64,000 bases of DNA from positions 6,391-70,390 of the forward strand of contig JAWODY010000074.1 in the NCBI GenBank assembly GCA_046483045.1, read 5' to 3'. The notes beneath the pieces were generated by a model. It searched no databases. It was not told the DNA's origin and saw only the letters and a list, made by a program, of their open reading frames with translations. Shown one piece after another: positions 8,809-57,643 of this stretch (within the stretch, counting starts at the first letter, position 1; each line of letters opens with the position of its first letter). Both the position numbers and the translations under genes were made by a program. The DNA is from Anaerolineales bacterium (GTDB taxonomy: Bacteria > Chloroflexota > Anaerolineae > Anaerolineales > UBA11858).

Positions 8809-9531
8809 TTACGGACTGGCAAAGAGGGTATTTTCCAACGAACCCAGTTTAGAAGACAGCACCTCCAGATCAGATCGGGCGGAAAATCGGTCCTCTTCAA
8901 GTTCTTCCATGATCAATTCATGCCTCTGCTGCATGTTGATCACCACCTCAACCTGGTCCTCGTTAAGCATGGTCTCCAATGTGTCTAAGGTATTCCCAAC
9001 TTTATCTAATTCCAACTTCGCTTCCGCAAGATTACCCTCCGAAAGAGCCAAAAGAGCGTCTGACACAGAGGATCGGGCACTGAGAAGGGTGATATGAACC
9101 TTTGTCTGTTTGATTTCCGCTTCCAATTCCTGGTTTCGTTCTTCAAAAGCAGACAAACGCTCCACTTCCCCTTCTAAATTGGCAACCTCAGCTTCAGCAT
9201 CCTCTAAAGCCTGTGTCGTCTGAGCTGCTTTCTTCATCGCTGGTTGGTAAAGGGCATAGTATGTCGTCCCTACTCCTGCACCGAAAGCGATGACCACAAT
9301 CACCAGCCATACCAACACCTTCCGAAAGAAACGGGCAACCTTACTTCGTTCTCTGCCTTCCTCTTTTGGTTCTGTGACGGGTTCTTCAAGCACCTCGTCC
9401 CCTTCTTTGGTAATGTCCGTTTGACCTTTTCCCAATTCTTCTTCCGGGGTCATTGGTTCCTGATCCTCGACTTGTTCTGCTTCTTCGTATTGTTCCTCGG
9501 CTGACTCCTCTTCTTTTTTCTTCCACTTCAT
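8809..9531 (-). CDS. Hypothetical single-pass membrane protein with acidic N-terminus and coiled-coil ectodomain
   Basis: A GGAGG lies 8 nt before ATG 9531 (MKWKKKEEES...). The TM segment is 'VLVWLVIVVIAFGAGVGTTYYALY', followed by heptad-like E/L-rich sequence. The ORF track start at 9561 lacks an RBS. Confidence 0.6.
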   Translation of the reverse strand: MKWKKKEEESAEEQYEEAEQVEDQEPMTPEEELGKGQTDITKEGDEVLEEPVTEPKEEGRERSKVARFFRKVLVWLVIVVIAFGAGVGTTYYALYQPAMKKAAQTTQALEDAEAEVANLEGEVERLSAFEERNQELEAEIKQTKVHITLLSARSSVSDALLALSEGNLAEAKLELDKVGNTLDTLETMLNEDQVEVVINMQQRHELIMEELEEDRFSARSDLEVLSSKLGSLENTLFASP

Positions 9532-9667
9532 AATATTTCCTCCTTCATAACCATCACTCATTGCCCAACTATATTATACCTGACACAAACCTGTTTGGAA
9601 TGCTCAACCTCAGAAGGAACCTAAAACATCCATTCTGAAGAAGATCAAACAGAAATATTCCTGCCAT

Positions 9668-9699
9668 AAAAAAAGCTGGGCTTCTGCCCAGCTTTTTTT
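9668..9699. terminator. Bidirectional intrinsic terminator (serves hsp20 on the minus strand)
   Basis: An 8-bp stem agctgggc-ttct-gcccagct is flanked by A7 on the left and T7 on the right. Confidence 0.8.
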
Positions 9700-9719
9700 C
9701 ATCAAGGATCACGTTCAAA

Positions 9720-10115
9720 TTAGCTAGTTCGAACTTCAATGGTGCGAGGAAGTGCTTCCTCAGCGACCGGCACCCGAAGGGTCAGGATTCCCTGCTCGAG
9801 ATTGGCTTCTGATTGATCCACTTCCATCATCTTGGGAATCTTTATCACACGTCGGAACTTTCCTAAAGGAATTTCCTCACGCAAGTATTGCACATCCTCT
9901 TCAGGTTTACTGAACTCACCTTGAATTTCAATCCTATTCTTCAGGATCTCAATATCTAAGTCATCCGGCTTCAACCCCGGAACGATCATTTCGACAAGGT
10001 ACATATCGTCCTCTACTCTGACATTGAGAGGTACCTGAACCTCGCGCTCCACAGATTCTGGGGACCGTTGGATTTTAGATCTCTGTCCCCGATACGGTCT
10101 GATATACATAGCCAT
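9720..10115 (-). CDS. Hsp20/alpha-crystallin family small heat-shock protein
   Basis: 131 aa with the alpha-crystallin core 'YLVEMIVPGLKPDDLDIEILKNRIEIQGE' and 'GILTLRVPV'. A visibly AT-rich upstream region spans 10116-10260. Confidence 0.88.
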   Translation of the reverse strand: MAMYIRPYRGQRSKIQRSPESVEREVQVPLNVRVEDDMYLVEMIVPGLKPDDLDIEILKNRIEIQGEFSKPEEDVQYLREEIPLGKFRRVIKIPKMMEVDQSEANLEQGILTLRVPVAEEALPRTIEVRTS

Positions 10116-10311: not shown

Positions 10312-11118
10312 TCAGTGTTGACCCAAGATGATCAGATAGGGACTTTCTTTTGTGAAAGATGATTTATGGAAATTCCCAAACGTTTGAATTGAAAATCCGT
10401 ACCTCCTCAATTCGGAAAGGTACATATCCACCGGCGTATCGTAATGAAGGTTGCTGACTGTTTGGCGTTCCACTTTCCCGTCCGGCATAAGATGGTCGTA
10501 ATGCCAGGTCCATCTCACCCCATTCGGGGCAGATTCCACCCAACTGCTGATCTGAACAGGGTTTCGTGTAACAGGATGCTGTATGATCTCTTCCAAGACA
10601 GAGTTTTTACCCCCTTCTCTCTCCTCCCCATCCTGCATCCAATTCAGCAGTTGATGGGGGTTAGGTACACTGAAAGAAAACAACCCGTGAGGTTTTAAGT
10701 GTTTAACAACGCATTCCAGGATAGAAATCCGGCCCTCCTCCGGAAATAAGCTGTATGTATTACAAGGAGAAAGCAGGATATCAAAGTCACGACTCAAGTG
10801 GAAAGACCTCATATCCATAGCTAAAAAGCAAACCCTATCCTGAACCGCTTGAGAGCGCTTTCTCAATTCCGCCCTGGCAAACTCCAGCTGATCCCGATCA
10901 TGATCCAGACCCCACACGACACGGCCCTTTTCTCCAAGAGCGATCGTCACCCGCCCTGTCCCACACCCCAACTCCAAAGCCCCATCACACCCTTTAGTGA
11001 TATCGGACCAAAATGGGATATCTTCCTGATATAAGTGGTGGTGAAATTGATATAACTGACTCCGCATAAAAAAATAAACCCGGAAACGAAGGGAACCCGT
11101 CATCCTTGACGCTGACAT
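10312..11118 (-). CDS. Class I SAM-dependent methyltransferase
   Basis: SAM-binding motif I 'ALELGCGTGRVTIALGEKG' with post-I 'GLDHD'. The substrate is unknown. An alternative start lies at M18. Confidence 0.75.
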   Translation of the reverse strand: MSASRMTGSLRFRVYFFMRSQLYQFHHHLYQEDIPFWSDITKGCDGALELGCGTGRVTIALGEKGRVVWGLDHDRDQLEFARAELRKRSQAVQDRVCFLAMDMRSFHLSRDFDILLSPCNTYSLFPEEGRISILECVVKHLKPHGLFSFSVPNPHQLLNWMQDGEEREGGKNSVLEEIIQHPVTRNPVQISSWVESAPNGVRWTWHYDHLMPDGKVERQTVSNLHYDTPVDMYLSELRRYGFSIQTFGNFHKSSFTKESPYLIILGQH

Positions 11119-11155: not shown

Positions 11156-11228
11156 CGGGGTGTAGCGCAGAGGGCAGCGCGCCGCGTTTGGGACGCGGAG
11201 GTCGACGGTTCAAGTCCGTCCACCCCGA
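11156..11228 (+). tRNA. tRNA-Pro (anticodon UGG)
   Basis: Hand-folded cloverleaf of 73 nt: acceptor cggggtg/caccccg, D-arm gcgc-agagggca-gcgc, anticodon arm ccgcg-tt TGG ga-cgcgg (G37), variable aggtc, T-arm gacgg-ttcaagt-ccgtc, discriminator A. No CCA is encoded. Confidence 0.93.
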
Positions 11229-11636
11229 CTGCCTATCATGCAAACTGGTGTCACTGTCAAAGGATGACTCAAACAGCGCTGTTCAAGCGAAAAATAAACG
11301 GGGGTCACAAAAGCTGTTCGGTACACGGCGGAAGGATTCATAGATTAAGTCCGATTATATGAACGCAGAGACACGGCATATTTCGATGTCCTCATTTCAG
11401 ATCGGGAGGAATTATTGAAACACCATAAGGTGGGGAAATTAATCAATACCGGAGTGCGAAAGCATTAGCAGGAAATCGCGTTTAATAAGTAGTTAATCAC
11501 CAGGAAAATCAGTGGGAAGAATAACTACTTTTCCGAAGGATTGGATCCGGAAAAGGGCCAGTCAGAAAACACACCCTTAGTTTACTAAGATCAATCAGAA
11601 TGAATGGACCAGTCAGGCTGTCTTTGCAGCTTGGTT

Positions 11637-28809: not shown

Positions 28810-30261
28810 CTATCCTTTGACAACTGCTAAGGGGGTCAATAAGGCGACTTTATCCGCTATCCCCGCACTATCCACAGCATTCACAACAGCATCCACGTCT
28901 TTGTAGGCAAGCGGGGCTTCCTCCGCTAACCCGGCCATAGACTTGGCCCTGATGTGAATCCCTTCTCTTTCCAGATCCTCTTTGAGATCCTCACCCCAGA
29001 CCTCGTGCTTAGCTTGAGTGCGGCTCATCGTCCTCCCCGCTCCGTGGCATGTCGAGCCAAATGAGCGTTCCATGCTGGCTGCAGTCCCTTTCAATACCCA
29101 GGAGGCGGTGCCCATGCTCCCTGGCACCAAGACCGGTTGGCCAATACGTTTATATTCCGGCGGCAGATCTTCAGAGCCGGGCGGGAATGCACGGGTGGCT
29201 CCCTTACGATGGACGCATACTTTCATCGCCTCCCCGTCTATCATATGGGTTTCAATTTTACCCATGTTATGGGCCACATCATACACCTGTTTGAGATGCC
29301 AATCCTCGACCTCACCGGCCAGCACATTTTCAAATGCCCGCCGGGAATAATACGCCAGCAGCTGTCGATTCGCAAAAGCGAAGTTTGCTGCACAACGCAT
29401 GGCTGCCAGATAGTTTTTCCCATCCGGGGTATTCATGGGCGCACAGACCAACTCCCGATCGGGGAGTTCGATTCCGTAGCGGTTGACTGCACTCTGGAAG
29501 CTCTGCACATAATCCGTGCAAACCTGATGCCCAAACCCGCGAGATCCGGTATGGATCTGAAGGGCAATGTTCCCTTCCCGCAATCCCATCACTTCCGCTG
29601 CATCCTCGTCAAAAACTTTGGCGATTAAATCCACCTCCAGGAAATGGTTGCCGGAACCCAACGTTCCAACCTGGCTTTTCCCGCGGTTCAGCGCTCGTTG
29701 GCTGACCTTATCGGGATCGGCCCCATCTAACCTTCCTCCTTCCTCAGTTCGGCGCACATCCTGACCGGTGGCATAGCCTTCTTTCTTCGACCACTGGCTG
29801 CCCTCTCTCAATAATCGGCGCATCTCATCTTTACCCAGACGCAAATGTCCGCTCACACCGACGCCACTTGGACACTGGCGGTGCAGTTCCGTGGCCAGAT
29901 CGCTCAAAAAGGGCTTCACTTCATCATGCAGCATATTCGTGGACATCAGCCTCACCCCACAGTTGATGTCATATCCAATGGCACCCGGCGAGATCACGCC
30001 ATCTGGATATCGGGTTGCCGCGACCCCGCCAATAGGAAAACCATATCCCTGGTGCATATCCGGCATGACGACCACATTTCCTACCAATCCGGGCAAACAA
30101 GCTGTGTTCACAGCCTGATCTAAGGATTTGTCCCGGGTGACCTCTTCTATAAGCTCTTCTGAAGCTATAATCCTTACAGAAACGTTCATATCATCCCGGT
30201 AGGTCTTGGGGATCTCCCACTCGTTTTCTGCTATCCGATTTAAATCTCGTAGATCAACCAT
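28810..30261 (-). CDS. rtcB: RNA 3'-phosphate/2',3'-cyclic phosphate ligase RtcB
   Basis: 483 aa with '[15 protein letters not shown]', 'DINCGVRL', '[10 protein letters not shown]', '[11 protein letters not shown]' and 'HGAGR'. Confidence 0.93.
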
Positions 30262-32634: not shown

Positions 32635-33183
32635 ATGTCTTCAAAAGAGAAAAATTTATTACAGCGAGCCCGAAAGCTTGACAGCAAAGCCCTGGGAATT
32701 ATCTACGACACTTACAGTGACAAATTGTACGCATACGCTGTCAGAAGGGTGGGAAACGCTCAACAAGCGGAGGACTTCGTCGCTGAAACGTTTTCAAGAT
32801 TTTTGCAGGCATTAAAAAGCGGTGGAGGACCAAAAGACCACTTACAGGCCTACCTTTATAGAATCACCCACAACCTGATAACAGATCATTACCGCAGGGA
32901 ACCTCCCCCTCCCCTGGAATTGGATGAAGACAGATACAGTGAGGACCTTGGTCAACCCGCAGACATCTTAACGCAACAAATAAAAGCTGAAAGGCTCCAG
33001 AAAGCCCTCCAGCATCTAACCCCCGGGCAGCAGCAGGTTATCATGCTTAAATACATAGAAGGATTCAGCAATCAGGAAATTGCGGAAACGATGGAAAAAT
33101 CACCAGGTGCTGTAAGGTCACAAGCCCACCGCGCTCTTGCTTCTCTTGAAAGGATTCTGGTCGATGAGGAAGATGAATCATGA
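32635..33183 (+). CDS. ECF-type RNA polymerase sigma-70 factor
   Basis: 182 aa. Region 2 reads 'ALGIIYDTYSDKLYAYAVRRVGNAQQAEDFVAETFSRFL...YLYRITHNLITDHYRR'. Region 4 HTH reads 'LTPGQQQVIMLKYIEGFSNQEIAETMEKSPGAVRSQAHRAL'. Confidence 0.9.
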   Translation: MSSKEKNLLQRARKLDSKALGIIYDTYSDKLYAYAVRRVGNAQQAEDFVAETFSRFLQALKSGGGPKDHLQAYLYRITHNLITDHYRREPPPPLELDEDRYSEDLGQPADILTQQIKAERLQKALQHLTPGQQQVIMLKYIEGFSNQEIAETMEKSPGAVRSQAHRALASLERILVDEEDES

Positions 33184-34163
33184 CCAATCACAATATACAA
33201 CCTGAATTAAATGAATATCTCAAAGCTCTCAAAGAAAAAGTGCCGCAGCGCGACCCAGAAATGGCAGCCAAGGGGCGGGCTAATTTTCTTTCGGAAGTGA
33301 AAGAACTCCAAGCGAAGAAATCAACCCCCTGGTTGGCTGAAATTTTTGCAGCGATCTTCTCTTTGCCGATTCAGGCCAACCGGCGTCTGGCAACCGCTGT
33401 CGCCAGCATTCTCACCGCGATCGTTCTTACTTTCGGGGCAGTGGGGGGAACGGTGTATGCCTCTCAGGACAGCCTGCCAAAACAAACACTTTACGCTGTA
33501 AAAACACTCACCGAAGATATCAGGCTCAGATTTTCAAAACAACCGGAAGAAAAAATTAGATTACTGGAAAAGTTTGCCAATCGAAGGGTAGAAGAACTAT
33601 CCGCGCTTTCAGAGAAAGAAGAAGAATTTCCCGAGGAGACGATTACTCGCCTGGAGCAGCATACAGAAACCATACTTAAGATAGCTTCTAAACAGGAAGG
33701 AAAAGAGTTGACCCAATCATTGAAAAAAATCCGGAAGTCTCTCCAAGCACAGGAAGAGATCATATCCAAACTGGCAAACATGGAGCATGGAAATGCTGAC
33801 AAGAAACTAACGCAGGTGCAGAAAAAACTACGGGAAAAAATCCATCTTGCTGAGGAAGGCCTGGACAATCCAGCTGCTTTTCGAAAGAAAATGAAGAGCA
33901 CAACACCTTTCACCCCGGTAGAGACCCTAAAACCCGGGAAACCAGAAGAAACTAGGACGCCTGAAAATAAGCGGAAACCGGTTGACCGCGGCACCCCAAT
34001 TTGGAAAGGAAAACCTGACCAGGTTGGCACGCCAGATCATAAAGGGAAACCGGGAGAGGCTGGACAACAGGAGAACAAGGGGAAACCAAACGAGCCAGGC
34101 TCACCAGATGACAAAGGGAAACCTGAAGATCCGGGTCCGCCGGATGATAAAAGAGGACCATGA
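33180..34163 (+). CDS. Single-pass membrane protein, DUF5667-like ectodomain, putative anti-sigma/sensor partner, with GKP-repeat tail
   Basis: ATGA overlap with the sigma gene. It has a cytoplasmic N-terminus of about 70 aa, TM 'LATAVASILTAIVLTFGAVGG', 'SQDSLPKQTLYAVKTLTEDIRLRF' and a helical region. The C-terminal tail carries four 12-aa repeats starting GKP. Confidence 0.65.
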   Translation: MTNHNIQPELNEYLKALKEKVPQRDPEMAAKGRANFLSEVKELQAKKSTPWLAEIFAAIFSLPIQANRRLATAVASILTAIVLTFGAVGGTVYASQDSLPKQTLYAVKTLTEDIRLRFSKQPEEKIRLLEKFANRRVEELSALSEKEEEFPEETITRLEQHTETILKIASKQEGKELTQSLKKIRKSLQAQEEIISKLANMEHGNADKKLTQVQKKLREKIHLAEEGLDNPAAFRKKMKSTTPFTPVETLKPGKPEETRTPENKRKPVDRGTPIWKGKPDQVGTPDHKGKPGEAGQQENKGKPNEPGSPDDKGKPEDPGPPDDKRGP

Positions 34164-34501
34164 GAAGAGAACGACCATAATTTTAAGCAAATTTACGAAA
34201 TTCATATTAGACATATAACCTCTCAGCCTACAAACTACCCCATCTATTCCATCCTCCTATAACCTCCTCAGAATCAGGAAGATTCTCCTGAGGGTGAATG
34301 GCAGCGTTACCTCAAAATGCTTCCTGGCTCCACGCCTATCCTTTGATAACCAAATATTCGCCTTCTCCTCAAAACCACCATCTCAACCTTAAAAAATTCA
34401 GATATTTAACAAACACCCGTAACAATCTGGTCTTTTTCGCGTCATATAGAGTGAAAGAAAGTCAGAAAAAAGGGAATTTAAGTCCAAAACCAGGAAAAAT
34501 A

Positions 34502-35446
34502 ATGGCTGAAGAAAGGAAATACCCGATATTAAATGAATATTTTGAGGCTCTAAAAGAAAAAGCTCCTCAGCGTGATGCAGAGCAAGCCGCTAAAGGGCGG
34601 ACCCATTTCCTGGCGGAAGCGAAGAGCCTGCAAAAACCCCAATCGACATCCTGGTTAGCGGACTTCCGAAAGACGCTTGCTTCCCTACAAATCAGGGGCA
34701 ATCGCCGTTTAGCCACCGCTGTCGCCAGCGTTTTGATTGCTCTAATCATCACCCTGGGGTCCGTTGGAGGAACTGTATACGCTTCCCAAGACAGCTTGCC
34801 AACTCAAACCCTTTACGCTGTAAAGACATTAACTGAGGATATACAACTGCGATTTGCAGATCAGGCCCAGGAGAAAATTGACCTCCTGGAAAAATTCACG
34901 AACCGCCGCGTTGATGAAGTGACCGCATTGGCCGAACGGGGCGAGGATATCCCCCAAGATACGATCTCTCGTTTTGAACAGCACACAGAGACCATGCTGC
35001 AGCTCTCCGCGGAATTAGAGGATGAAGATCAAGCCCAAACGCTTTCCCATATTCGCAACGCGCTGCAAGTTCATGAAGAAGTCATTCAAAAGCTCGCCGA
35101 GCGAGAATCGGGGAAAGCGGGAGAAGCGCTGCGTATGGTCCAGGGAAGGTTGCAGTCACAGATACAACGCATCGAAGAAGGAATGCTGGACCCAACCACT
35201 TTTCAAGAGAACAATCAAGATCAGAATCCCTTCAAGCCATTCGAAACCCCTCCGTCCGGAAAGCCTGAAAATATTGGACCGCCCGAAGAAAAAGGGAAGC
35301 CGGATGGGGTTGGCACACCGGACCACAAAGGCAAACCGGAGGACGCCGGCACACCAGAGAGCAAAAAGGGTCCAGAAAGTGACCCCCCTGATGGCAATGG
35401 ACCTCCCGATGAGGTTGATCCTCCAGCCGGCGGAGGAAAACCATAA
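34502..35446 (+). CDS. Paralog of 33180..34163 (DUF5667-like membrane protein with GKP-repeat tail)
   Basis: From ATG 34502 (MAEERKYPILNEYFEALKEKAPQRD...) it is collinear with the upstream paralog. Shared runs include 'NRRLATAVAS', 'GGTVYASQDSLP', 'QTLYAVKTLTEDI' and 'EQHTET'. Confidence 0.65.
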   Translation: MAEERKYPILNEYFEALKEKAPQRDAEQAAKGRTHFLAEAKSLQKPQSTSWLADFRKTLASLQIRGNRRLATAVASVLIALIITLGSVGGTVYASQDSLPTQTLYAVKTLTEDIQLRFADQAQEKIDLLEKFTNRRVDEVTALAERGEDIPQDTISRFEQHTETMLQLSAELEDEDQAQTLSHIRNALQVHEEVIQKLAERESGKAGEALRMVQGRLQSQIQRIEEGMLDPTTFQENNQDQNPFKPFETPPSGKPENIGPPEEKGKPDGVGTPDHKGKPEDAGTPESKKGPESDPPDGNGPPDEVDPPAGGGKP

Positions 35447-54225: not shown

Positions 54226-55209
54226 ATGAACACAAAACCTACCCGAAACCTTGCTTTAGAACTTGTCCGTGTAACCGAAGCAGCTTCCCTTTCCGCAGGT
54301 CGATTCATGGGGAGGGGAAATAAAGAGGCTGCGGATAAAGCTGCAGTGGATGCCATGCGACTGGTTTTGAACTCCATAGACATGGATGCCGCCATCATCA
54401 TCGGTGAAGGTGAAAAAGACGAAGCTCCCATGCTCTTCAACGGAGAGAAGGTCGGCACAGGAGAATCCCCCGCTGTGGATATCGCAGTTGATCCCATCGA
54501 TGGTACTCGACCCCTGGCGAATGGTTTTTTGAACTCCATCGCCACGGTCGCCACCTCCCCAAGAGAAACCATGTTCGACCCCGGTCCCTTCGTGTATATG
54601 GATAAAATTGCCGTGGGTCCTCCGGCCAAAGGGCTGATTGACATCGAAGCGCCGGTCGCTGAAAACCTGAAAGTAATTGCCAAATCCGAAGACAAAAACA
54701 TCAAGGATGTGACCGTCGTCATCCTCAGCCGACCCCGTCACGAAGAGCTCATCAAGGAAGTTCGATCCGTTGGCGCTCGGATCCGTCTCATCCCGGATGG
54801 GGACGTAGCGGGTGCGTTGATGACCTGCCTCCCCGAATCAGGGATCGATGCCTTGTTGGGTATTGGGGGCACCCCCGAAGGTGTATTAGCTGCCTGTGCA
54901 ATCCGTGCAATGGGAGGGGAACTACAGGGGAAACTTTATGCCCGATCTGAGGAAGAAAAGAAAAGGGGGGAGCAATTAGGATATAACTTTGAAAAAGTCA
55001 TCACCATGGATGACCTGGTCTCTTCTGATGATGTCTTCTTCGCTGCCACTGGAATTACAGACGGTGAATTATTGGAGGGAGTCCGGTACATACCGCATGG
55101 GGCAGAGACGCATAGTCTGGTGATCAGAGGTATGACAGGCAGCGTGCGTTGGATCAGAGCGAAACACAATTTTGAGAAACTCAATCCCATCAGCGAAATC
55201 GAATATTAA
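54226..55209 (+). CDS. glpX: Fructose-1,6-bisphosphatase class II
   Basis: Contains 'LALELVRVTEAASLSAGRFMGRG.K..AD.AAVDAMR', 'DIAVDPIDGT' and 'GIGGTPEGVLAA'. Confidence 0.92.
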   Translation: MNTKPTRNLALELVRVTEAASLSAGRFMGRGNKEAADKAAVDAMRLVLNSIDMDAAIIIGEGEKDEAPMLFNGEKVGTGESPAVDIAVDPIDGTRPLANGFLNSIATVATSPRETMFDPGPFVYMDKIAVGPPAKGLIDIEAPVAENLKVIAKSEDKNIKDVTVVILSRPRHEELIKEVRSVGARIRLIPDGDVAGALMTCLPESGIDALLGIGGTPEGVLAACAIRAMGGELQGKLYARSEEEKKRGEQLGYNFEKVITMDDLVSSDDVFFAATGITDGELLEGVRYIPHGAETHSLVIRGMTGSVRWIRAKHNFEKLNPISEIEY

Positions 55210-55236: not shown

Positions 55237-56892
55237 CTAAAGCTCTTTCACCAGATAATGTTTTCCTCGCTTAAACCCGCGTTCTAAGTAATACTTCCGG
55301 GTGCCAATTGCAGATATCACAGCGATTTTCGGATACCCGCGTTCTCGGGCGATTTGTTCAGACCATTCCAATAATGATGTGCCCAGCCCTGCATGCTGTG
55401 CCGCGCCTTCCCTTTCCCGTCCCACCTGCAAAGAAGGACCATAGACGTGAACTTCACGGATGACGGCGGCACCTTTGAGGTCATCCATCCCCGGATCTAA
55501 AATATCCTCCCCGGGCAATGACAGTCGCAGGAAACCTGCAAGCTCATCATCCGGTGTATTGAAAGAAAGGAAATGCTCTTCACTGCCGTGGATGGTGTAG
55601 GTTAAATCATCCAAGGTGAGGTCCTCCACTTCAACGTCTTTCCCCCTCACTTCCCGGCACCGGATACACAGGCACCTTTCGCCGCGTCTCTTCAGCTCCC
55701 TTTGGATGTCCTGACGCAAACTTGGCGTCTTATTTCCAGCCACAACGTTCGTAGAAGGGATATCACGCACGATACGATTCACCCGACAATAACGGGGAAT
55801 GCTTGGCTTTACATCTGCGATGAGTTCAATAAGTTCCTGCGTTGTGTAAGGATCATACTCCCCGCGTTTCCAGTACTCATAAAGCTCCGTACCCTCTAAA
55901 AGCTGCGTAGGATAAATCTTCAATTCATCAGGAGCCAAATACTTCCACAAGCGGGCAAAATCTTCTTTATCGGACTCCAGGGTCGCTCCCAGTAAATTAG
56001 GCATCCAATGGAGAACAATTTTGAACCCGGCAGCCCGCAGCCATGCCACCCCTCGGATGGTTTCCTCTCGGGTGTGACCGCGTTTGTTGAGCGCTCCAAT
56101 CCGATCATCGAGATTTTGCACACCCAATTGGACTTTGGTCACCCCCAAGCCGCGCATCTTTTTCATCTCCCGGGGAGAAATATAATCCGGACGCGTTTCA
56201 ATCACCATGCCCACGTTCTTATGGTCCGCTGTCTCATTCAGGGACTGCGCCTGCGCTAGGGTCTCCGCAACCTCATCGTTCATGGCATCCAGGCAGCGTT
56301 TGACAAACCATTCCTGGTAATCCGTCCGGTAAGCACTCCATGATCCGCCCAAGATTAAAAGTTCTATTTTGTCCGTGGGGTGGCCAATTTCATATAGCGC
56401 CTGAATGCGGGCTTTAACTTGGTCATAAGGATTAAATTGGTGGCGGAGAGCCCGCATAGCTCCAGGCTCATCCGGTAAGTAACTGACTGGCAGCTCATCA
56501 TAATCCGGGCAAAAAATACAATCCGCTGGACACGGGTAGGGTTTGGTGAGTACGGTGACCGTGGTCACGCCAGAAAGGCTCCTCATGGGCTTGAGCCTAA
56601 TCTTCGCCAACAATTCTCTGTCCGGCAAACGTTCCCCACTTTCCACCTGCTGTCGATAGGCTGTGACCAAAGCATGCTTACTGAGAAATCCAGCCCCATC
56701 AGGTAAAGGATGGGTCCGTATTGCGTCAAAGACTTCCTCACCCCGGACAATATCTTCCAGCGTTTCCCTTGCTAAGGCCAACTCCTCTGAGCTGTGTTCA
56801 CGGTGTTCTTCCATCCAACCATCTTTTTGTTTACTCATCTCAATTCCCATCACTACCTGAATAAAATGTCTTTCACTAACCGCGCTGCTCAA
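55237..56892 (-). CDS. elp3: Elp3-family radical SAM / GNAT acetyltransferase (bacterial Elongator subunit 3 homolog)
   Basis: Contains 'KPMRSLSGVTTVTVLTKPYPCPADCIFCP' (CxxxCxxC), 'EPGAMRALRHQFNPYDQV', 'KIELLILGGSW' and the C-terminal GNAT 'IREVHVYG...QHAGLGTSLL..E.IARE.GY.KIAVISAIGTRKYY'. The start is uncertain: TTG 56892, ATG 56850 or ATG 56838. Confidence 0.88.
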   Translation of the reverse strand: MSSAVSERHFIQVVMGIEMSKQKDGWMEEHREHSSEELALARETLEDIVRGEEVFDAIRTHPLPDGAGFLSKHALVTAYRQQVESGERLPDRELLAKIRLKPMRSLSGVTTVTVLTKPYPCPADCIFCPDYDELPVSYLPDEPGAMRALRHQFNPYDQVKARIQALYEIGHPTDKIELLILGGSWSAYRTDYQEWFVKRCLDAMNDEVAETLAQAQSLNETADHKNVGMVIETRPDYISPREMKKMRGLGVTKVQLGVQNLDDRIGALNKRGHTREETIRGVAWLRAAGFKIVLHWMPNLLGATLESDKEDFARLWKYLAPDELKIYPTQLLEGTELYEYWKRGEYDPYTTQELIELIADVKPSIPRYCRVNRIVRDIPSTNVVAGNKTPSLRQDIQRELKRRGERCLCIRCREVRGKDVEVEDLTLDDLTYTIHGSEEHFLSFNTPDDELAGFLRLSLPGEDILDPGMDDLKGAAVIREVHVYGPSLQVGREREGAAQHAGLGTSLLEWSEQIARERGYPKIAVISAIGTRKYYLERGFKRGKHYLVKEL

Positions 56893-56920
56893 GAAATGTA
56901 ATTTAACCTATAATGAATAT

Positions 56921-57643
56921 ATGGACTACAGTGTGGCCCAATACCTGATCAAACTCAATCATCAATTTTACCAAACGTTCTCCGGAGAGTTCTCAGAAAC
57001 CCGGCAGAGGATCCAACCAGGGGTAGACCAGATCCTGGATCAACTCAACTCCCAGATCCGGATTTTAGACCTTGGCTGCGGAAACGGGAAATTAGCCCGG
57101 GCCTTAGCCCAGAGGGATATAGCGTGTTCATATGTAGGAGCTGACTTCAGCAGCGACCTGTTGACCCATGCTCGAGAAAACCTGCCCGATGACTTCGCTG
57201 CCAGCTTTCTTGAATTGGATCTCATTCAGGATGACTGGGGGAAATCCCTTCCCCCTCTTCCGTTTGACACGATCTTCGCTTTCGCCACCCTACATCACAT
57301 CCCATCCCAAGCCCTCCGGCTGAATACACTGAGGGAGATTCGCCCCCGTATCAAGCCGGACGGGGTTTTCTACCTTTCCAATTGGCAGTTCTTAAACAGT
57401 CCTCGGCTCAAAAAGCGGGTTCAGCCCTGGGAGAAAGTGGGCCTTCGGAAAAAAGATGTGGAGGAAGGGGACTACCTCATGGATTGGCGACGGGGAGGTT
57501 ACGGACTGCGGTACGTGCATCATTTTACCCCATCGGAGTTGGCGGTATTGGCTGAAAAGAGCAGATTTCAAATTATAGACGATTTTTATTCCGACGGTAA
57601 GGAAGGCAACCTTGGATATTACCAAATCTGGAAGCCAAGTTAG
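56921..57643 (+). CDS. Trm9/ALKBH8-like class I SAM-dependent methyltransferase
   Basis: It is collinear with yeast Trm9 blocks: 'FYQTFSGEFSETRQRIQPGVDQIL' (VY..IA.HFS.TR...WP.V..FL), 'ILDLGCGNGK', 'FDTIFAFATLHHIPS', 'NWQFLN', 'GDYLMDW' and 'LRYVHHFTPSEL' (RYYH.F...EL). Confidence 0.65.
   Translation: MDYSVAQYLIKLNHQFYQTFSGEFSETRQRIQPGVDQILDQLNSQIRILDLGCGNGKLARALAQRDIACSYVGADFSSDLLTHARENLPDDFAASFLELDLIQDDWGKSLPPLPFDTIFAFATLHHIPSQALRLNTLREIRPRIKPDGVFYLSNWQFLNSPRLKKRVQPWEKVGLRKKDVEEGDYLMDWRRGGYGLRYVHHFTPSELAVLAEKSRFQIIDDFYSDGKEGNLGYYQIWKPS

Follow-up and report, generated by a model that had tools for sequence, protein, structure and literature searches.

A 64,000-nucleotide stretch of DNA from an Anaerolineales bacterium (phylum Chloroflexota; contig JAWODY010000074.1 of assembly GCA_046483045.1, positions 6,391 to 70,390), which we will call the window, encodes a homolog of Elp3 and, next to it on the opposite strand, a class I S-adenosylmethionine (SAM)-dependent methyltransferase that resembles Trm9. 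The first gene encodes an Elp3, the catalytic residues of both enzymes are conserved, and the gene pair is conserved in two classes of Chloroflexota. We predict that the two proteins probably form a two-step pathway for modifying the wobble uridine of tRNA (U34): Elp3 would make 5-carboxymethyluridine (cm5U), and the Trm9-like enzyme would convert it to 5-methoxycarbonylmethyluridine (mcm5U). We infer the substrates and the product from sequence features, and the genomic context is the decisive evidence for the Trm9-type reading of the methyltransferase. The first-pass annotation of the window had already proposed an mcm5-type wobble modification, and every computational test that was feasible supports this.

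The two open reading frames (ORFs) are divergent neighbors, with the coordinates and strands that were first assigned to them. The features of the locus are:

55237..56892, minus strand: Elp3 (radical SAM plus GNAT/lysine acetyltransferase (KAT) tRNA U34 carboxymethyl synthase), assigned from TIGR01211, Pfam domains, PDB matches, and catalytic residues
56851..56920, no strand: divergent intergenic region, 70-82 bp after correction of the start codon, with the putative promoters of both genes, from reading the sequence
56910..56915, plus strand: TATAAT, a putative -10 box of the leaderless-mRNA type, conserved upstream of the methyltransferase in related loci
56921..57643, plus strand: Trm9-like class I SAM-dependent methyltransferase of 240 amino acids (aa), predicted to O-methylate the carboxyl group of cm5U34 to give mcm5U34, from residues, hhalign, fold, and context

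The identification of the first gene as a full-length Elp3 is beyond doubt. The ORF scores 492.4 bits against TIGR01211 from NCBIfam (the cutoff is 350 bits), with residues 92-551 covered. Its best match in the PDB is MinElp3 from Methanocaldococcus infernus (6iaz; E = 9.8e-116), and it is 43% identical to DmcElp3 from Dehalococcoides mccartyi (5l7j; E = 6.6e-112). The Pfam domains are Radical_SAM (PF04055; E = 5e-15), Radical_SAM_C (PF16199; E = 6e-23), and Acetyltransf_1. All of the motifs that had been quoted for this protein are present: CPADCIFCP (residues 121-129), IREVHVYG, and KIAVISAIGTRKYY. The iron-sulfur cysteines C121, C125, and C128 lie in CPADCIFC (121-128) with the same Cx3Cx2C spacing as in DmcElp3, and the acetyl-CoA motif (QxxGxG or QHxGxG) is QHAGLG at residue 499. 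Lin et al. found that K77, K193, E386, and Y441 of DmcElp3 are important (PMC6367351); these are conserved as K175, K291, E480, and Y534. As for function, it is established that archaeal Elp3 makes cm5U34 on its own, and DmcElp3 was shown to hydrolyze acetyl-CoA when triggered by tRNA (PMC6367351, PMC13315578).

The Elp3 from the window also has an N-terminal extension of ~75-90 residues (about residues 15-92), which is conserved in its relatives, is absent from DmcElp3, and does not align to positions 1-48 of TIGR01211. The N-terminal ~90 residues are net acidic (12 K/R versus 17 D/E), unlike the N-terminus of archaeal and eukaryotic Elp3, which is basic and binds tRNA (PMC6367351).

To compare the methyltransferase to Trm9, we used a yeast Trm9 sequence that matches Trm9 from Yarrowia lipolytica (5cm2_Z) with E = 4.5e-71 and whose residue numbering agrees with the published numbering. 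Mutagenesis by Letoquart et al. showed that the activity of yeast Trm9 (ScTrm9) requires R29, D72, H116, W145, W168, R241, Y243, and N271 (PMC4678810). In an alignment of 24 members of the methyltransferase family (A1; average identity 53%, with sharply conserved blocks), six of the eight are invariant: R28 (R29 in ScTrm9), D75 (D72), H126 (H116), W155 (W145), W189 (W168), and R197 (R241). Three supporting residues, Y17 (Y18), H125 (H115), and Y198 (Y242), are invariant as well. The SAM site has the expected GxGxG motif, as an invariant GCGNG at residues 52-56, along with the acidic residue D75. In the N-terminal helix, Y17 and R28 (in the FSxTR motif) are present in all 24 sequences and are aligned in the same way by hhalign and by MAFFT. 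The Trm9 blocks quoted by the first-pass annotation are all found, namely FSETRQRIQPGVDQIL, LDLGCGNGK, LHHIPS, NWQ, DYLMDW, and RYVHHFTPSEL.

The collinearity of these blocks with Trm9 is not due to chance. With complete yeast Trm9, the hhalign probability for A1 is 98%; when A1 is compared to yeast Trm9 without its eukaryote-specific insert, hhalign gives a near-full-length match (98.3% probability; E = 2.6e-14; 190 columns). As a control, the other class I methyltransferase in the window aligns to Trm9 over the 101 columns of the Rossmann core only (E = 1.6e-10). Also, we ran phmmer with yeast Trm9 against all 20,728 stop-to-stop ORFs from the window and 80 related loci (described below). 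No source gave more than one match, and the match was always to this methyltransferase; the window and 77 of the 80 loci each had one. The AlphaFold (AF2) model of the methyltransferase has a mean predicted local distance difference test score (pLDDT) of 90.6, and its top match in the PDB, according to Foldseek, is Y. lipolytica Trm9 (5cm2_Z; E = 1.8e-14, template modeling (TM) score 0.78; the next match has E = 7.2e-14).

The methyltransferase cannot be assigned to a family from its Pfam and NCBIfam matches, which are to generic class I models. It scores 21.9 bits against the model for CmoM (NF008264), far from the cutoff of 366 bits, and all of the other NCBIfam matches are also far below their own cutoffs. 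Names for its relatives vary by source: NCBI and UniRef use “class I SAM-dependent methyltransferase,” and the automated pipeline of JGI, which is based on KEGG Orthology (KO), names many of them “tRNA (uracil-5-)-methyltransferase TRM9.” Considering the low score for CmoM, the conserved set of Trm9 active-site residues, the top fold match, and the names from JGI, no other characterized family has a claim to this protein; membership in such a family was one of the outcomes that, according to the first-pass annotation, would have spoken against its proposal.

To examine the conservation of the pair, we fetched 80 loci with the methyltransferase as the query, and we located Elp3 in them with tblastn. 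Elp3 is directly upstream of the methyltransferase, on the opposite strand, in 72 of the 80 loci. Of the remaining eight, three are cut short by the end of the contig, so this is 72 of 77 informative loci from Anaerolineae. The flanking genes are retained less often: glpX in 17 of the 80 loci, a gene for a 564-aa protein in 25, and frr/uppS/cdsA in 15. That the pair is kept while its flanks change implies that it persists through the reshuffling of its surroundings. Conservation of the pairing, which the first-pass annotation had named as a way to check its proposal, thus holds across Anaerolineae, and the pairing recurs in Dehalococcoidia, including D. mccartyi.

In one of the loci (L054), cysH (phosphoadenylyl-sulfate reductase; 253 bits to NF002537) lies between the two genes, at 9243-9971 on the minus strand, which is the strand of Elp3. 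About 13 further loci have a similar gap of 650-1050 bp between Elp3 and the methyltransferase (for instance, L056, L063, L064, L069, L045, L062, L072, L074, L038, and L042). We had considered a tRNA thiolase as the inserted gene; in L054, the identification of cysH ruled this out.

We found the Dehalococcoidia genes by using the sequence of DmcElp3 from the PDB alignment and then looking up the contigs (L081-L085). In D. mccartyi (CP019867.1), Elp3 is divergent to a 224-aa class I methyltransferase (L081:9283-9957), 43 bp away. The divergent pairing is also present in three of the four other loci with Dehalococcoidia-type Elp3 (four of five in total). This methyltransferase is just 25% identical to the one in the window and 29% identical to yeast Trm9, and it carries all eight of the essential Trm9 residues (in the motifs FRH, DFS, HH, VWN, VPW, RYYxL, and SRN). 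RYY is retained, and RN, at the site of N271, is invariant in the Dehalococcoidia type. By hhalign, the Dehalococcoidia type is linked both to A1 (99.3%) and to Trm9 (99.0%). When its profile is compared to the PDB, Trm9 is second and essentially tied for first, with a near-full-length match; in Foldseek, Trm9 ranks fourth. Most relatives of this type are named TRM9 by JGI; the name given to the D. mccartyi protein by NCBI is “SAM-dependent methyltransferase.” The flanking genes in Dehalococcoidia (L081, L082, L084, and L085) are ruvB, queH (epoxyqueuosine reductase, a tRNA modification gene), and a small GNAT acetyltransferase, none of which matches the flanks in Anaerolineae. What the two classes share is the divergent pair alone.

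In Dehalococcoidia, a small conserved protein of the zinc-ribbon type (70-75 aa; four cysteines, CPxC...CWKC) is encoded just after the Trm9-like gene. It is conserved beside the methyltransferase at these positions:

L081:8423-8650, minus strand: four-cysteine protein
L082:8387-8605, minus strand: four-cysteine protein
L084:2691-2909, minus strand: four-cysteine protein
L085:3005-3217, minus strand: four-cysteine protein

This protein matches no family in Pfam and has no match to Trm112, and we found no homolog of it in the Anaerolineae loci. By Pfam, it is not Trm112. We speculate that it could be a Trm112-like or Kti11-like accessory protein.

Given the pair, how are the two genes expressed? 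The spacer of 28 bp that was first reported is correct for the longest ORF of Elp3, which has 551 aa and begins at TTG 56892. There is no ribosome-binding site at that codon, so ATG 56850 (537 aa, preceded by AGGTAGTG) or ATG 56838 (533 aa) is probably the start of Elp3. With these starts, the spacer is 70-82 bp. The leader of Elp3 is conventional and contains an element like a Shine-Dalgarno sequence. There is no Shine-Dalgarno sequence upstream of the methyltransferase start. There, the TATAAT at 56910-56915 ends 5 nt before the start codon (a 6-nt gap to the A of the ATG). An exact TATAAT precedes the ATG in 65 of 75 related loci, by 6 nt in 60 of them and by 7 nt in five. We detected this conserved element by inspecting the aligned upstream sequences, both visually and with a script. 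A scan of the spacer for consensus promoters found nothing, because the scanner requires a -35 hexamer and the spacer has none. A TATAAT near the start codon has been described as a signature of leaderless genes (PMC3160421), and the methyltransferase mRNA is probably leaderless, being transcribed from the conserved TATAAT promoter. The shared divergent control that was originally suggested was not demonstrated. The methyltransferase has its own conserved, putative promoter. Since the two putative promoters are within ~70 bp of each other, it is possible that the regulation of the two genes is coupled.

We propose the following mechanism. Elp3 would act alone, as in archaea, without the other subunits of Elongator. 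Its radical SAM domain, with a [4Fe-4S] cluster and SAM, and its KAT domain, which would bind acetyl-CoA, would together carboxymethylate U34 of some tRNAs at C5, to form cm5U34. The Trm9-like enzyme would bind SAM. Arg28 and the His125-His126 dyad would position the carboxylate of cm5U, with the base stacked on Trp155 and Trp189. Transfer of the methyl group to the carboxylate would then yield mcm5U34.

Eukaryotic Trm9 requires Trm112. Using phmmer with E. coli YcaR, along with a regular expression (CPxC...GIP), we found no Trm112-like ORF, either across the window or up to 10 kb from the pair in any of the 80 loci. Nor did we find a fusion to Trm112 among the longer members of the methyltransferase family. 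With no homolog nearby and no fusion, it is possible that this methyltransferase is independent of Trm112.

The lack of a Trm112-like ORF near the pair is one of several observations that count against an mcm5U pathway in these bacteria. In five loci (L027, L039, L052, L055, and L080), the methyltransferase is not linked to Elp3. Two of the eight essential residues are not conserved in the Anaerolineae family: the position of Y243 in ScTrm9 is occupied by valine (19 sequences), alanine (4), or isoleucine (1), so that the RYY motif is absent, and N271, which was proposed to read O2 and N3 of the uracil (PMC4678810), aligns to a column of K, E, or R in a C-terminal region where the alignment is unreliable. 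(The nearby N229 is not conserved.) Structure and sequence searches do not discriminate strongly: the advantage of Trm9 over the next match in Foldseek is less than one order of magnitude, with poor separation from many small methyltransferases, and Trm9 ranks just 16th (from the single sequence) or 13th (from the A1 profile) among PDB sequences, which is weak discrimination among class I enzymes. Finally, a review from 2020 stated that there was no evidence for derivatives of xcm5U34 in Dehalococcoides, and DmcElp3 is only weakly active in vitro (PMC7663514).

These observations suggest alternatives. One is that the pair does act on tRNA and forms a product other than mcm5U: it might act on another intermediate of Elp3 or on another atom, or it might act after a step such as 2-thiolation, to give a derivative of xcm5U that is specific to bacteria. 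Besides the replaced Y243 and the lack of a clear equivalent of N271, the Anaerolineae methyltransferases contain an additional basic stretch, ~11 residues long, that lies before the DYLxDW motif (between W155 and W189), and their C-terminus has an invariant SDG...YQxW motif that is different from Trm9. The altered positions and the basic stretch might mean that the base or the tRNA is held differently. However, the residues that would position the carboxylate (R28, H125/H126, and R197) and the tryptophans that would stack on the base are invariant, and the counterpart from Dehalococcoidia, at the equivalent genomic position, retains all eight of the Trm9 residues, which argues for an unchanged reaction. 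We consider another product to be unlikely. We are similarly doubtful that the methyltransferase acts on something unrelated, such as a small molecule, a protein, or a different RNA, and that its adjacency to Elp3 is a frozen accident, perhaps maintained by overlapping divergent promoters. The generic names in Pfam, NCBIfam, NCBI, and UniRef, the unspecific ranking in the PDB, the methyltransferase’s own promoter, and the five unlinked loci would all fit with this. But an accident does not easily explain why the pair is retained so much more often than its flanks (17-25 of 80 loci for the latter), or why another class has the same pairing with a homolog that is only 25% identical. Furthermore, the conserved residues extend beyond the SAM site and correspond to those of a cm5U carboxyl methyltransferase. 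It seems very improbable that Elp3 itself is not a tRNA enzyme here but is, say, a protein acetyltransferase, with the methyltransferase participating in that other role. Elp3 was historically proposed to be a histone or lysine acetyltransferase, and the acidic N-terminus of the window’s Elp3 is unlike the tRNA-binding N-termini of its archaeal and eukaryotic homologs. Against this, bacterial, archaeal, and eukaryotic Elp3 hydrolyze acetyl-CoA only when triggered by tRNA (PMC6367351), and all of the catalytic residues of the radical SAM and KAT domains are retained.

Thus, we favor the conversion of cm5U to mcm5U. We are more tentative about the wider proposal, which may or may not hold in full: that both Anaerolineae and Dehalococcoidia make mcm5U-type U34 by means of an Elp3 that acts alone and a Trm9 that needs no Trm112, rather than through MnmE/MnmG, and that the enzyme from Anaerolineae is a derived variant with altered recognition of the uracil.

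The proposed pathway can be compared to several known systems. Eukaryotic Elongator and Trm9-Trm112 (or ALKBH8-TRMT112) involve the same two enzyme families and the same predicted chemistry, and the architecture and catalytic residues of Elp3 are retained in the window, as are the equivalents of R29, D72, H115, H116, W145, W168, and R241 of Trm9. In contrast to the eukaryotic system, the genes in the window are adjacent and divergent, with no Elp1/2/4/5/6 subunits and no gene for Trm112 nearby. The window’s methyltransferase also differs from eukaryotic Trm9 in that it lacks the long insert, has V/A/I at the position of Y243, and has the extra basic segment before DYLxDW. In archaea, the stand-alone Elp3 of M. 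infernus works alone, and it is the protein of known structure that is most similar to the window’s Elp3 (E = 1e-115). Archaeal Trm9, which we compare by description, works as a complex with Trm112 in Haloferax volcanii (HVO_1032), whereas the host here is a bacterium. The complex from H. volcanii has been validated experimentally, and the genes for Elp3 and Trm9 cluster together in Sulfolobus (S. solfataricus) (PMC6144793, PMC5372719).

Among bacteria, the closest comparison is to DmcElp3 (5l7j), which is from the same phylum, has the same key residues, and also has a divergent Trm9-like neighbor. The window’s Elp3 has the ~75-90 additional N-terminal residues, and of the two neighboring methyltransferases, the one from Dehalococcoidia is nearer to canonical Trm9. 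CmoM, which converts uridine 5-oxyacetic acid (cmo5U) to its methyl ester (mcmo5U) in bacteria, is another class I enzyme that methyl-esterifies a side-chain carboxylate of the wobble uridine. Its substrate is formed by CmoA/CmoB rather than by Elp3, and as mentioned above, the methyltransferase scores poorly against it. MnmE/MnmG, the usual bacterial pathway for 5-methyluridine derivatives (xm5U34), also acts on C5 of U34 and serves the same role in decoding; its enzymes and chemistry are unrelated. Neither MnmE nor MnmG nor any gene for thiolation turned up in scans of the window’s larger ORFs, which represent the window and not the whole genome. According to a secondary source, the presence of Elp3 in bacteria coincides with the absence of MnmE/MnmG (PMC9433433), and a paper from 2026 states that “numerous bacteria” have Elp3 (PMC13315578).

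In the literature that we could search, which did not include the original paper on DmcElp3, we did not find any bacterial pairing of Elp3 with Trm9 described, and no paper contained both “Trm9” and a word beginning with “Chloroflex.” Wobble modifications of the xcm5U type are regarded as a trait of eukaryotes and archaea, the only groups from which, as far as we know, mcm5U has been reported. Bacterial Elp3 has been viewed as a peculiarity of Dehalococcoides for which no subsequent step is known. The prediction of mcm5U in these bacteria is apparently unpublished, although KO-based annotation already hints at it. Our proposal does not involve a new kind of system: a pathway that is already known would be extended to another domain of life, where one of the enzymes is a derived variant.

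Relatives of the methyltransferase are numerous. A word-indexed search gave 5,626 matches, and at E ≤ 1e-30 the family profile matched 1,172 clusters of proteins grouped at 50% identity. In a collection of genomes, relatives are encoded by at least 451 genomes at the species level, of which the 80 best are all from Chloroflexota, mostly Anaerolineales, except for two records titled Nitrosomonadaceae and Bacteroidetes, which may be binning errors. Of four relatives from a search of representative sequences (P0246, P0249, P0264, and P0260), three have a DUF559 domain (Vsr-like endonuclease) that interrupts the methyltransferase near its middle, between about residues 93 and 94, and one has a C-terminal fusion to a GNAT domain. 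In the loci where the methyltransferase is not linked to Elp3, a LysM-domain protein is encoded upstream of it in L027 and L039 (the two that were scanned), and a GT87 glycosyltransferase is encoded downstream of it in L027 and L080 (two of the three that were scanned).

As for the rest of the window, its G+C content is ~49%, and its closest public relative is a metagenome-assembled genome from Anaerolineales (JAGXKM010000076), with 91-99% protein identity across the neighborhood of Elp3 and the methyltransferase. In the window, the pair is flanked by glpX (54226-55209) and by the gene for the 564-aa protein, which has a weak match resembling the C-terminal domain of XPB helicase. The second class I methyltransferase, at 10312-11118 on the minus strand, has a sub-threshold match to methyltransferases for daptide-type RiPPs (ribosomally synthesized and post-translationally modified peptides); it is divergent to tRNA-Pro(UGG) (11156-11229, plus strand), which is the only tRNA gene in the window. 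A gene for the RNA ligase RtcB is at 28810-30261 on the minus strand (Pfam RtcB, E = 1.5e-170). Two adjoining paralogous genes, at 33180-34163 and 34298-35446 on the plus strand, each encode a DUF5667 domain.

The conserved pair predicts a complete pathway for mcm5U in a large and environmentally abundant phylum of bacteria. The structural model of Elp3 from D. mccartyi gains a candidate partner enzyme, which was apparently unremarked in the literature that we searched. Anaerolinea thermophila and D. mccartyi offer cultivable or recombinant systems for asking if Trm9 can work without Trm112. The pair also opens questions about the transfer of this pathway between domains of life and about decoding in bacteria that are reported to lack MnmE/MnmG.

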